Notes under the pieces: model-generated
Seen by the model: only the letters and a program-made list of their open reading frames with translations
Database searches by the model: none
Told to the model about the DNA's origin: nothing
Assembly: GCA_036170915.1 (NCBI GenBank)
Contig: JAVHQC010000024.1
Coordinates: forward strand, 1 to 56,777
Origin: Cyanobacteria bacterium auto_48_18
Lineage (GTDB): Bacteria; Cyanobacteriota; Vampirovibrionia; Obscuribacterales; Obscuribacteraceae
Length of the DNA: 56,777 nucleotides
Direction of reading: 5' to 3'
Position numbers and translations under genes: made by a program
Shown here: one piece after another, positions 6,707 to 10,762 of the stretch
How positions within the stretch are numbered: position 1 is the stretch's first letter
Layout: every line of letters starts with the position of its first letter

Positions 6707-8662
6707 CTAAATCGATTCTTTGGTCTCGATTTCTTTTTTCAACTTCGCAAGAAGCTCATCGACACTCATGGTGCCAATGTCGCCTTGTCTTCTGTGGCGC
6801 AAAGCAATCTGGTTGTTTTCCATTTCTTTGTCACCAATTACCACCATGTAAGGCACTTGATCAACTTGCGCTTCACGAATGCGATATTTAATGGTCTCTG
6901 ATCTTTCGTCCAATTTCACCCGCAAATCTGCGGCTTTTAACTGGTCGGCAATGGCGCGGGCAGCGTCATTGTGACGGTCAGATAGTGGCAGTACAGTCAC
7001 TTGTGTTGGTGCCAGCCAGAGCGGGAAAGCTCCGGCATAGTGTTCAATTAAACCACCGACAAAGCGTTCCATCGAACCAAGCACAGCGCGGTGCACCATG
7101 ATTGCTTTATGGCGATTGCCGTCCACTCCGATGTAGTTAACATCAAAGCGCTCGGGCAAGTTCAAGTCAACTTGTACAGTTGGCCCTTGCCATTCGCGGC
7201 CGATAGCGTCGAACAATTTGACGTCAATTTTTGGTGCATAAAATGCGCCGCCACCTTCGTCAACTTCATAGGGCATGCCGCGTTTCTTCATGGCCCCTTC
7301 GAGCGCGCGAGTGGCTCTTTCCCACTCTTCATCGCTACCCATAGCGTTCTCTGGTTTAGTAGCCAGGTATGCTTTGTAGGTATAACCAAAAGTGGTCATC
7401 AACGTTTCAATCAAATCGATGATGGCTGAGATTTCGTCTTCCAGTTGTTCTGGCGTGCAGAAAATGTGCGAGTCGTCTTGTGTAAATCCGCGCACTCTCA
7501 GCATGCCGTGCAGCACACCAGAGCGCTCGTATCTATAAACGGTACCGAGTTCGGCCATGCGCACTGGCAGATCACGATAGCTGTGCAATTTCGATTTGTA
7601 GATCATAATGTGACCAGGGCAATTCATTGGTTTTGCCCGGTAATTTTGACCGTCGATTTCCATGGGCGAATACATATTTTCAGCGTAGTTTTCTAAGTGG
7701 CCGCTGATTTTGTACAGATCTTCGCTGGCAATGTGTGGCGTATAAACAAAAACATAGCCGCGCTTTTTGTGTTCTCCGCGCCAGTAGTTTTCAATTTCGT
7801 CACGCACAGTAGCTAAATTTGGATGCCAGAAGATTAGCCCAGGGCCAACTTCTTCGTGGGTAGAGAAAAGATCCAGCTGCTTCGATAATTTGCGGTGGTC
7901 TCTTTTTTCTGCTTCTTCCAATCTATTTAGATAAGCGTCTTGATCTTCTTTCGACCACCAGGCGGTGGCATAAATGCGCTGCAGTTGCTCGCGTTTTTCG
8001 TCACCACGCCAGTAGGCGCCTGAAACTTTCAAAAGTTTGAAGGCTTTGATTTTTCCAGTAGATGGCAAATGCGGCCCGCGGCAAAAATCATTCCAGACCG
8101 TCTTGCCTTCTTTGTCTTGCATCAAGTACAAAGTCGGGTTATGGTCGCGGTGCTCATTTAATAGTTCGGCTTTGAATTTCTCACCCTGACTTTTGAAGTC
8201 GGCCAGTTGCTGTTCAACGTCAGGAATATCAAAGCGCACAAGCCTTTGATTTTCGCCCACGATTTTTTTCATTTCGGCTTCAATCTGGGTCAGATCTTCA
8301 GTGCTTAAAGTGTGACCAGGAATTTCGAAATCGTAATAGAAGCCGTCAGCGATAGTGGGGCCAATAGCGATTTTGGCGTCAGCAAAAATTCGCTGCACGG
8401 CCTGAGCCAGTACGTGAGCGGTAGAGTGACGCAAAAGCTCAATTGATTCTGGGCTATCTGGAGTGAGAATCTTGACGGTATCACCATCGGTCAATGGTGT
8501 GAAAAGGTCTTTCAACTCGTCGTTGATTAAGACTCCTACTGCCTTGCGGTATAAGCCTTCGCTAATATTTTTAGCCAGGTCTGCTCCGGTCTCACCCCCA
8601 TTGAGCGTGCGCTCAGCGCCGTCAGGGAGTTTGACTTTTATTTGTGTTTGCACTTGCGACAT
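6707..8662 (-). CDS. thrS: Threonine--tRNA ligase
   Basis: TGS domain, RHSTAHVLAQA, DFCRGPH, GAYWRGD, KPMNCPGH, RVRGFTQDD, HRAVLGSMERF. Confidence 0.98.
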   Translation of the reverse strand: MSQVQTQIKVKLPDGAERTLNGGETGADLAKNISEGLYRKAVGVLINDELKDLFTPLTDGDTVKILTPDSPESIELLRHSTAHVLAQAVQRIFADAKIAIGPTIADGFYYDFEIPGHTLSTEDLTQIEAEMKKIVGENQRLVRFDIPDVEQQLADFKSQGEKFKAELLNEHRDHNPTLYLMQDKEGKTVWNDFCRGPHLPSTGKIKAFKLLKVSGAYWRGDEKREQLQRIYATAWWSKEDQDAYLNRLEEAEKRDHRKLSKQLDLFSTHEEVGPGLIFWHPNLATVRDEIENYWRGEHKKRGYVFVYTPHIASEDLYKISGHLENYAENMYSPMEIDGQNYRAKPMNCPGHIMIYKSKLHSYRDLPVRMAELGTVYRYERSGVLHGMLRVRGFTQDDSHIFCTPEQLEDEISAIIDLIETLMTTFGYTYKAYLATKPENAMGSDEEWERATRALEGAMKKRGMPYEVDEGGGAFYAPKIDVKLFDAIGREWQGPTVQVDLNLPERFDVNYIGVDGNRHKAIMVHRAVLGSMERFVGGLIEHYAGAFPLWLAPTQVTVLPLSDRHNDAARAIADQLKAADLRVKLDERSETIKYRIREAQVDQVPYMVVIGDKEMENNQIALRHRRQGDIGTMSVDELLAKLKKEIETKESI

Positions 8663-8678
8663 AAATACATCCTTCTTT

Positions 8679-8703
8679 AATCGGCATCTACAAACTGCCG
8701 ATT
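8679..8703 (-). promoter_or_regulatory. Putative thrS translational operator (tRNA-Thr anticodon-arm mimic)
   Basis: mRNA AAUCGGCA-G-UUUGUAG-A-UGCCGAUU: 8-bp stem with UGU centred in a 7-nt loop, ending 16 nt before the thrS AUG, next to the AAGAAGGA SD. Confidence 0.6.
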
Positions 8704-8726
8704 GTTAATTAGTGTCCGTGCCCATT

Positions 8727-9263
8727 TTAGCAGGCGAATTCGGCTTTGAGGGCGGCAGCGAAGGCGGCTACGGCCTCTGCATTGGTAAAGAAGCGGATAC
8801 CAAGGGCATCCCAGCGATAGATACCTGTCTCAACATTTCCGGCGTCTACGAAAAATTCTACTTTCAAGCCGCCACCCACTGCTTTTACAGACAGTTCAAA
8901 GGAAGGCTCGGCAGGTTCGAATAAAACCAGGCTGCGTTTGTCTTGAGCCAGATCTTCGAGCTTTTTGGCCAGATCGAGAGCTTCATCTTGCGGGCTGCGG
9001 CAGAGCAAATATGCGTGAGCCACCGATTGAATGTCGCCAACAGCTTCCGACAGGTCATTTTTTTCAAAAGTGCGTTCTTGGGGAGTTTCAAAGCTAAGGC
9101 AACGCGTACCGTTTTCTAAAGTCAGCCGCACATATTGCCAGGTCTGAGTTTCGAGCGGTTTGTCAGCTTGCAAATTTGCTTGCGCATTGATGGAAAATTT
9201 TTCGCCCGCTTCTATAGATAGCGAACTGTGGAAATTTGTATCTTCTGCTTTCAAGGTTGCCAT
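8727..9263 (-). CDS. Hypothetical protein (weak resemblance to WapI-like immunity proteins)
   Basis: ORF 8727..9293, ATG at 9263; C-terminal FEPAEPSFEL...VDAG...FAAALKAEF; co-oriented between mnmE and thrS. Confidence 0.65.
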   Translation of the reverse strand: MATLKAEDTNFHSSLSIEAGEKFSINAQANLQADKPLETQTWQYVRLTLENGTRCLSFETPQERTFEKNDLSEAVGDIQSVAHAYLLCRSPQDEALDLAKKLEDLAQDKRSLVLFEPAEPSFELSVKAVGGGLKVEFFVDAGNVETGIYRWDALGIRFFTNAEAVAAFAAALKAEFAC

Positions 9264-9277
9264 AATTTTTTTCCTGA

Positions 9278-10762
9278 TTATTTGCCGATACAAAAATTGG
9301 CGAAGACTTCGGTGATTACTTCTTCAGTGACCGCCACCCCTGATATTTCGTCAAGTGCGTCAACTGCTTGCCTCAAATCAGTGCCCAGGCAGTCATGTGG
9401 CATTCCACTTTGCACCGCCTGATCAAGATATGCAAGCGATGCCAGAGCCTTGAGGCAAAGCTGCCCCTGGCGCTGATTGAGTGAGCCGCCCAATTCTTGT
9501 ACCGCCGACCCGGCCAGAGCCCACTGTTCGATTGCGGCTTTGAGGTCGTCTATGCCGTGACCATAGCGAGCCGATATATCTATTGGTGTTTCTTGCACAG
9601 CCTGATTGGAGCTCTGCAATTTTCGCGCCGCATTGCTTTCGTCTTTAGCTGTCCAAGATTGCGCAAAACTTTGAGCTTCATCTTTGTCTTTGAGATCGAC
9701 TTTGTTGACCACTATTAAGTATGGTCGCTCAAATTGCAAAAGCCTGGCGGCAATAAATTCTTCTTCGTCGCCCACACCCTGCACACGGTCGATCATAAAG
9801 ACCACCAGATCTGCCTCTTCAATGGCTTTGCTGGTGCGTTCGATGCCAATCATTTCTACTGCGTCTTCGGTGGCCCGTACTCCCGCAGTATCAATTAAAA
9901 TTACGGGAATGCCGTTAACATCTACGGGCTCTTCAATCGAGTCGCGCGTGGTGCCGGGAATATCAGTGACAATAGCGCGCTCGAAATTAAGCATGCGATT
10001 GAGCAAGCTAGATTTGCCGGCATTGGGGCGGCCGACGATGGCCAGTTTCAAGCCTTCTCTTAAGTAGCGCCCGCTGCGAGCGGTTTTCGCCAGTTGAGCC
10101 AGACGACTTTGACAGTCACTGGTAACCTTTTCAATGTCACTGGTGTCAAGGTCGCCCACTTCTTCAGGAAAATCGATACCAGCCACAATGCGCGTTAAAA
10201 GCTCCATTAACTTTGAGCGCACCGCTTTGATTTCTTCTCCCAGTTGGCCTTTCAAAACCGATAATGCAAGCCCTGATTGCCGTTCTGTTTTTGAATGAAT
10301 TAAATCGAGCACTGCTTCAGCCTGGGTCAAATCGATGCGCCCTGATAGAAATCCACGCTTGGTAAATTCACCGGCTGAAGCCAGTCTTGCCCCCAGTGCG
10401 AGAGCCAATGTCAGTATTTCCCTCGTGACAATGGGCGAGCCGTGGCAGTTAATTTCCACCAGGTCTTCACCGGTATAACTGTTCGGTCCTTGATAAGGAA
10501 TGAGCACGACTTCGTCAATGAACCGCCCGGCATCGGCACCTTCGGGGCGTTGCACAATGAAGCCGATGGTGGCAGTGTGGCTTTTAGGCTGCCACTCGGC
10601 AGGTGCATTTAAATCAGGCGCAGCGGCCGTGCGGGGAAGAAATATTTTTTGCGCGATGGTAAAGGCCTGAGGGCCTGAAAGTCTTACTATGGCTATAGCT
10701 CCCACTCCCGGAGGGGTGGAAAGGGCTGTGATGGTCTCATCATTAATTGAACTGGCAAACAT
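9278..10762 (-). CDS. mnmE: tRNA modification GTPase MnmE
   Basis: GAIAIVRLSG, SYTGEDLVEINCHG, GRPNAGKSSL, GTTRD, DTAG, NKVD, C-terminal FCIGK; ATG at 10762 preferred over 10810. Confidence 0.97.
   Translation of the reverse strand: MFASSINDETITALSTPPGVGAIAIVRLSGPQAFTIAQKIFLPRTAAAPDLNAPAEWQPKSHTATIGFIVQRPEGADAGRFIDEVVLIPYQGPNSYTGEDLVEINCHGSPIVTREILTLALALGARLASAGEFTKRGFLSGRIDLTQAEAVLDLIHSKTERQSGLALSVLKGQLGEEIKAVRSKLMELLTRIVAGIDFPEEVGDLDTSDIEKVTSDCQSRLAQLAKTARSGRYLREGLKLAIVGRPNAGKSSLLNRMLNFERAIVTDIPGTTRDSIEEPVDVNGIPVILIDTAGVRATEDAVEMIGIERTSKAIEEADLVVFMIDRVQGVGDEEEFIAARLLQFERPYLIVVNKVDLKDKDEAQSFAQSWTAKDESNAARKLQSSNQAVQETPIDISARYGHGIDDLKAAIEQWALAGSAVQELGGSLNQRQGQLCLKALASLAYLDQAVQSGMPHDCLGTDLRQAVDALDEISGVAVTEEVITEVFANFCIGK

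Follow-up and report, generated by a model that had tools for sequence, protein, structure and literature searches.

The window, the whole 56,777-nt stretch of DNA analysed here, carries thrS on its minus strand, with the ATG at 8662-8660. The product contains the TGS, editing, catalytic and anticodon-binding domains (Pfam) and matched solved bacterial threonyl-tRNA synthetase (ThrRS) chains with E-values of 1e-182 and 1e-174. One thrS was found in the source assembly, which is 86% complete, and the closest named relatives by ThrRS, mostly labelled Obscuribacterales or Melainabacteria, showed 92% and 76% identity. The source genome also has two tRNA gene arrays of nine genes each (G000:C33, 15652-16458 and 164122-165603) and a tRNA-Sec on C16. 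The features at the locus, with leader positions counted from the start codon and the basis of each call in brackets, are as follows:

6707..8662, minus strand: thrS, full-length ThrRS of 651 aa, the proposed repressor (Pfam TGS, tRNA_SAD, tRNA-synt_2b, HGTP_anticodon)
8670..8678, minus strand: Shine-Dalgarno (SD) region AAAGAAGGA, purine-rich, unpaired beside the hairpin (letters; unpaired probability 0.76)
8679..8703, minus strand: putative tRNA-Thr anticodon-arm mimic hairpin, with an 8-bp stem here and a 9-nt loop with G.A closure (letters, folding, covariance model)
8683..8699, minus strand: family-conserved 17-nt core GGCA-G-UUUGUnn-A-UGCC (91/94 leaders; alignment)
8688..8694, minus strand: 7-nt anticodon-like loop U32-U33-U34-G35-U36-A37-G38, in which G35 is 8691, or -29 (own tRNA-Thr(UGU) loop; E. 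coli leader)
8724..8732, minus strand: extended -10-like element TGCTAAAAT, which overlaps the upstream gene's stop codon (consensus match; predicts a start near -55)
8727..9293, minus strand: hypothetical gene with a weak WapI-like Pfam match below the cut-off (downstream of mnmE; context)

On the minus strand, the leader from 8703 to 8679 (-41 to -17) reads AAUCGGCA-G-UUUGUAG-A-UGCCGAUU and continues into AAAGAAGGA. The first-pass annotation had described an 8-bp stem with a G-A closure at this place, next to the SD, and the description was confirmed by the letters and by ViennaRNA, which predicted the 8-bp stem in each of the three fragments. Its reading of the central triplet as UGU after U33 was likewise borne out; the loop resembles that of the source genome's tRNA-Thr(UGU), with six of seven bases identical (UUUGUAG and UUUGUAA). 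A 36-nt piece chosen around the hairpin folded significantly better than its dinucleotide shuffles (z -4.30, 1/200); by the same comparison the 64-nt intergenic region (z -1.07) and a 121-nt piece (z 0.11) showed no significant folding, and folding energy alone is weak evidence for this hairpin. The core stem had a probability of 0.97 in the window's predicted leader. A covariance model of the family scored the window hairpin at 40.5 bits on the minus strand versus 10.3 on the plus strand, the window sequence being a member of the training set.

A thrS match was obtained in 102 of the 107 genomes of the order that were searched. Within the window's family, full-length thrS was present in 96 genomes and 94 leaders were readable (one start lay off the contig end and one fragment was missing). 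The 17-nt core, with up to two mismatches, was found in 91 of these 94 leaders and in 32 of the 35 genera of this Obscuribacterales family. It was kept while ThrRS identity dropped to 67%, and the flanking sequence showed no conservation. Columns 32-34 and 36, G31, A39 and the two inner pairs were invariant in the 91 leaders; U33 and U36 were thus kept in 91/91, and G35 in 90/91. Position 37 was A in 75, C in 10, U in 4 and G in 2, and position 38 was G in 79, U in 7, C in 4 and A in 1, so that the family has ten loop variants in which 32-36 is constant save in one genome and 37/38 is free. The U33-UGU-A37 pattern proposed earlier therefore stands for U33, G35 and U36 but not for A37. The constant five bases are those of the source genome's tRNA-Thr(UGU) loop and also of the E. 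coli domain-4 loop. A structure-based detector that was blind to the family sequence found the hairpin in 84/94 leaders, against 0.58 expected from shuffles, and the predicted core-stem probability was below 0.5 in 22 of the 91. The three core-less leaders formed one clade (support 1.0) in a midpoint-rooted FastTree tree of 112 selected proteins, indicating a single loss of the hairpin. Because all 91 leaders are kin, these counts show one conserved element rather than 91 independent trials; the cases are of one family and probably share one origin, and they point to selection, not to mechanism.

The stem was compared on 63 distinct genome rows, in which the 8-pair helix was 80.4% paired versus 72.7% after shuffling. 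Stem covariation on these rows was 0.247 versus 0.122 in shuffles (0/500) and at most 0.106 in slid controls; shuffle tests overstate significance for related sequences. The signal sits in pairs 26-44 and 25-45. Pair 26-44 was CG in 47 rows, UA in 10, GC in 2, UG in 1 and unpaired in 3, and on the protein tree it shows two changes of C-G to U-A and one to G-C, which makes at least three separate flips. The inner two stem pairs were without any variation and hence uninformative for covariation, and the two outermost pairs were not above shuffles on 86 rows that included metagenome leaders, indicating that the conserved stem is 5-6 bp; the 8-bp stem holds for the source genome but not for its relatives. 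All six changes inside the 4-bp core retained an RNA pair on the mRNA strand (two A-U and four G-U), and the sister genomes G109 and G110 have G-U versus A-U at one and the same core pair. Covariation across thrS leaders of Vampirovibrionia and Cyanobacteria, as the first-pass annotation had proposed to look for, was seen within the window's family, and the mimic was not found in the leaders searched elsewhere. Loss of the hairpin or of the loop GU in relatives, which that annotation had named as grounds for abandoning its idea, was not what we observed: the hairpin with its covarying stem is kept in 91/94 leaders, G35 in 90/91 and U36 in 91/91.

The hairpin adjoins the SD without covering it, as domain 2 of the E. 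coli thrS leader does next to domain 1. G35 lay at -23..-34 in 82 of the 91 leaders, at -38..-41 in six and at -98 or -131 in three, and the unpaired probability of the SD, 0.76 in the window, had a median of 0.52 across 83 leaders. The TGCTAAAAT element would place the transcription start at about 8717, near -55, and give a short leader. In 81/91 leaders a TGnTAnnAT element was present no more than 80 nt upstream of the core (8-12 nt away in 41 and 15-52 nt away in 40), and none was found in ten. A scan for sigma-70 promoters and terminators returned nothing in the thrS leader and did not pick up TGCTAAAAT. The hairpin was rejected as an intrinsic terminator, since the stem is followed by purines without a U-tract and the terminator scan made no call here, and a thrL-type leader-peptide attenuator was rejected for the window thrS because the leader has no terminator-like site. 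Thr-rich leader ORFs occurred in 5/94 long-type leaders; the five come from a single genus, start about 155 nt upstream and, by our reading, appear to lie within the upstream gene. The hairpin remains with thrS across three upstream contexts (75, 9 and 7 leaders). The hypothetical gene with the weak WapI-like immunity match, between mnmE and thrS, is itself conserved, lying upstream of thrS in 75/91 leaders.

The 4.94-Mb source genome contains a single exact copy of the core, with one more site at one mismatch and 32 at up to two. A generic NGU-loop hairpin within the last 130 nt was detected in 28 of 3302 ORF leaders of this genome; five of these were at -41..-23, among which thrS alone has 8 bp and the other four have 4 bp. 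No anticodon-arm hairpin of any triplet was found in 19 other leaders of the aminoacyl-tRNA synthetase family in the source genome, a set outside which glycyl-tRNA synthetase and PheT fall. The combination of core, SD and ATG occurred in 92 metagenome stretches, of which 38 were thrS by BLAST, all nearest to the window's family (72-100%), three were cut short but thrS-like at the start, and 51 were not thrS. In two of the metagenome sequences (L314 and L358), the same core with five extra pairs and a strong SD precedes a non-thrS ORF. A relaxed pattern gave 150 matches in the 107 genomes, 90 at thrS and 60 elsewhere, with 21 for the reversed control (hand-counted). Eight of nine non-thrS sites examined among the 60 lay in open frames 400 codons or longer, which makes codon usage a likely cause of such matches.

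Outside the family, the generic NGU-hairpin detector found nothing in three sister-family thrS leaders (0/3), in other families of the class (0/53; 52 of 70 matched leaders plus one extra) or, with one copy each, in the rest of the phylum (0/32, from 45 matched), so that the mimic was seen in 0/88 leaders examined across the phylum outside the window's family. It also found none in 66 distant thrS leaders (three of 69 were dropped for short upstream DNA). The detector recovers E. coli domain 2, and the start codons were called heuristically, some of them wrongly. Searched with the family covariance model, 95 loci besides that of the window, E. coli among them, gave no match below E 0.05. The earlier suggestion of a ThrRS mimic in this lineage thus applies to one Obscuribacterales family and not to Vampirovibrionia or Cyanobacteria at large. 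The thrS hairpin is real, conserved as an RNA structure, specific to thrS and restricted to the family.

Other thrS leaders of the class had features of their own. In family f6, nine of 11 leaders (L018, L227-L236) shared a AGTTAGGGGGATCCACCCC-like motif upstream of thrS; it looks T-box-like by eye, and those tested had no Rfam match. In families f4, f7 and f8 (L209, L213, L237, L238, L243, L244 and others), a -10-like hexamer was seen by eye 5-8 nt ahead of the ATG of thrS; the thrS mRNAs there may be leaderless, with no room for an operator.

Rfam searches gave no match to any family in the window, nothing but one tRNA at 19 related thrS loci and the E. coli locus, and a chance miRNA match only in 18 loci at E up to 0.5, from which it follows that the library has no family for this hairpin or for the E. 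coli operator. The first-pass annotation knew of no such control outside Proteobacteria; Torres-Larios and colleagues reportedly extended the operator in 2002 to 'a subset of Gram-negative bacteria', with Thermus perhaps among them, so that its absence from the record outside Proteobacteria is not established. In the accessible portions of the open-access literature, including PMC2965389 and PMC4787780, we found no description of a thrS operator in Melainabacteria or Cyanobacteria. Anabaena thrS2 is described as Zur-controlled, and the available sections of that paper mention neither a leader nor a T-box (PMC4787780).

Several genomes depart from the common arrangement. G032 retains the stem with a loop triplet UCU, a 70-100 nt insertion separates the hairpin from the thrS start in G080-G082, and in genus g37 (L107, L109, L110) the hairpin is 89-122 nt upstream of the thrS start. 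The g37 leaders show, after the hairpin, an SD and the GTG of a short out-of-frame ORF, as well as an inserted inverted repeat. In the hairpin-less clade (L137, L142, L174) the extended -10 is kept and the leaders are longer and folded differently; a search for a ThrRS protein signature of hairpin loss returned 0 columns (controls 0-3). The statement that there is a single mimic hairpin was accurate for 88/91 leaders, the window among them, whereas a search of the 150 nt upstream gave a generic second match in the other three. A possible second hairpin with a UUUGUA loop and an ACAUG/CAUGU stem lies 29 nt upstream of the main one in G047 and G054 (L138, L141) and in metagenome L333. All three are weak and absent from the minimum-energy fold; those of G047 and G054 (-2.7 kcal/mol) look real, and together with that of L333 they may represent a domain-4-like gain in one subclade.

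Three genomes, G068 among them, yielded only a divergent short thrS. The short-type leader of G068 (L189) has an unrelated stem at -42 to -20 with loop UUUGUAU and G35 at -32, the one NGU hairpin in 15 short-type leaders against 0.18 expected, and the mimic may have re-evolved independently ahead of the single thrS that this genome yielded, a reading that is suggestive only. Second, shorter thrS copies (L191-L202) occurred in twelve hairpin-carrying genomes (G046, G107, G106, G051, G108, G052, G048, G050, G047, G054, G053 and G033). All 12 have a leader ORF with at least three Thr in seven codons, encoding peptides of 19-28 aa with 3-6 Thr in seven codons at about -175 to -25. A GAGCC..GGCTC U-tailed hairpin follows the peptide, the terminator pattern being shared by 11/12 and the twelfth being similar by eye. 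Rfam at E 0.5 gave no match at the six second-copy leaders tested. These leaders are candidate ribosome-mediated attenuators acting on a second, shorter ThrRS in Melainabacteria.

In E. coli, ThrRS binds domains II and IV of its mRNA by their likeness to the anticodon loop and blocks the 30S subunit, and swapping the operator anticodon transfers control to MetRS, as described in accessible portions of PMC11088916, PMC9976931, PMC3858243 and PMC6542539. R583, E600 and R609 contact the operator loop (PMC6430810, available sections). For the same enzyme, the accessible part of PMC4756836 reports specific reading of G35/U36, with D549 touching U33, N575 touching 32/34, and R583 and R589 touching 37/38. 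The window ThrRS has R596/E613/R622 at the positions of R583/E600/R609 and D562 at that of D549. Across the family, R583 was kept in 86/87 proteins (one K), E600 and R609 in 87/87, and D549 in 84/87 (three E); N575 and R589 were not kept (S/A/P and Q/K). The R583K change belongs to G036 and not to the G35-mutant genome G032. Conserved anticodon-reading residues are general to ThrRS and are not diagnostic of regulation.

We conclude, with a probability of roughly 0.8, that the element is a one-hairpin operator for ThrRS autorepression and acts in the manner of E. coli domain 2. Because a copy of the anticodon loop sits just before the thrS ribosome-binding site, ThrRS probably represses its own production. 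From the E. coli case we infer that ThrRS binds the hairpin, that the outcome is repression and that tRNA competes; the transcription start is a prediction. In this mechanism, an internal extended -10 promoter would produce a leader of about 55 nt holding the hairpin, a free SD and the AUG. When ThrRS is in excess over its tRNA, the anticodon-binding domain would read loop G35/U36 as tRNA-Thr, and the bulky enzyme bound beside the SD would keep the 30S subunit off. tRNA-Thr would compete ThrRS away from the hairpin and lift the repression. Against the operator reading, the invariance of U32, U34, G31, A39 and the stem sequence goes beyond what recognition of G35/U36 alone needs. The missing domain-4 partner in 88/91 leaders, the changes at N575 and R589, the UCU loop of G032, the displaced g37 hairpins, the low stem probability in 22/91 and the relaxed-pattern matches away from thrS also count against it, as does the finding of no compensating ThrRS change in the hairpin-less clade.

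The invariance of U34 and of the G31.A39 closure would fit another binder of anticodon loops controlling thrS through the hairpin, either an enzyme that modifies tRNA at U34 or A37 (e.g. MnmE/MnmG, TrhO/TrhP or TsaD) or an unknown regulator, and most leaders have mnmE at a distance of one or two genes upstream. However, the hairpin is fixed in position to the SD of thrS and not to mnmE, seven leaders of five genera lack either usual neighbour within 480 nt, and the triplet is the cognate one for the enzyme encoded downstream. In addition, t6A enzymes require U36-A37-A38, and the freedom at position 37 argues against them. We regard such a binder as unlikely. A purely structural 5' element that no protein binds, serving in nuclease protection, as a processing mark or in ribosome standby, is suggested by the 41/91 leaders whose core begins 8-12 nt after the -10 element, which puts the hairpin at the predicted 5' end. 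A protective stem has no need of an invariant 9-nt loop, though; the conserved stem is short, with a median of -8.7 kcal/mol (core plus 3 nt), and the hairpin is 15-52 nt from the -10 element in 40 leaders, making this explanation very unlikely.

The same 41/91 leaders carry an almost invariant inverted repeat at roughly +2 to +20, and the relaxed pattern matched elsewhere above its control (60 versus 21), as expected if a transcription repressor bound the DNA at the palindrome GGCA-N9-TGCC, which follows closely on the -10 element. Several observations oppose this: the outer pairs switch in concert (CG, UA, GC), the core changes include four G-U and no A-C, conservation is highest in the asymmetric spacer, and the -10 distance spans 8-52 nt while G35 stays at -23..-34 from the start in 82/91. 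Moreover, the exact core is found once in the window's own genome, against 344 occurrences of bare GGCA-N9-TGCC. A DNA operator is consequently given a very slim chance. We grant an equally slim one to binding by ThrRS with an outcome other than repression of initiation, such as mRNA stabilisation or activation. In human cells, ThrRS binding to anticodon-like loops increases translation according to the available sections of PMC6430810, and a single hairpin may bind too weakly for a 30S block. The geometry beside a free SD is nevertheless that of E. coli domain 2 (G35 at -29 versus -32), where binding blocks the 30S subunit (PMC3858243, accessible portion), and the ThrRS retains its N-terminal domains.

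A wider picture can be drawn, to which we assign about even odds as a whole. Autorepression by mimicry would have originated independently in the ancestor of the Obscuribacterales family, as a minimal one-hairpin, G.A-closed operator. It would be one of two tiers of control: excess enzyme would cap the housekeeping ThrRS, and a Thr leader-peptide attenuator would turn on a second, acquired ThrRS. The element would also re-evolve easily, as the G068 stem and the second hairpin of one subclade may illustrate, the latter arriving again at the two-site layout of E. coli. For tRNA mimicry in mRNA, the thrS operator of E. coli is the textbook example, and the mechanism of ThrRS autorepression is itself already known from there. 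A one-hairpin form in another phylum, if true, would mean that this control is not an enterobacterial oddity and can arise again, and that one site may suffice for a dimeric synthetase. The family offers natural test variants in its ten loops, the G35 change, the one-clade loss, the displaced copies and the two-hairpin subclade.

The Firmicutes thrS/thrZ genes pair a housekeeping ThrRS with a back-up one, a two-copy arrangement to which the window's family bears a likeness, and their T-box shares with the proposed operator the control of thrS by tRNA-Thr status. They differ in that the window's intergenic region is only 64 nt and its loop shows the anticodon, not a Thr codon. A T-box riboswitch, with a stem I bearing a specifier codon, an antiterminator and a long leader, was rejected for the window on the 64-nt intergenic region and the lack of an Rfam match.

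The closer comparison is with E. coli, whose thrS leader has a domain 2 loop UUCGUGU with its G at -32 and an 8-nt domain 4 loop containing UUUGUUG. Domain 2 and the window's element are alike in being a hairpin just 5' of an unpaired SD with G35 at about -30 (-32 and -29), and in a 7-nt U-U-N-G-U-N-N loop whose closing pair is weak or non-Watson-Crick. In both, positions 37/38 are unlike tRNA and the ThrRS is full-length with R583/E600/R609 or their equivalents. In contrast, the stem sequences are unlike, the family's covariance model misses the E. coli leader, and the loop has CGU there and UGU in the window's family. The family further differs from domain 2 in its invariant G31.A39, its conserved stem of 5-6 bp and its predicted leader of about 40-70 nt; it belongs to another phylum, with no domain 4 in 88/91 leaders. 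The domain 4 loop UUUGUUG is one of the family's ten variants (2/91), but domain 4 is a distal second site (G at -95) whereas the family's UUUGU loop is proximal and usually the sole one. The window's family therefore has the anticodon-like loop, the SD-adjacent hairpin, the RNA covariation and a ThrRS with the contacting residues and N-terminal domains that characterise an E. coli-type operator, and it lacks, in 88/91 leaders and in the window, the second anticodon-like hairpin for the dimeric enzyme. As an element that would work like domain 2 without the two-hairpin feature, it is best placed as a variant of the E. coli-type operator rather than as a member of that class.
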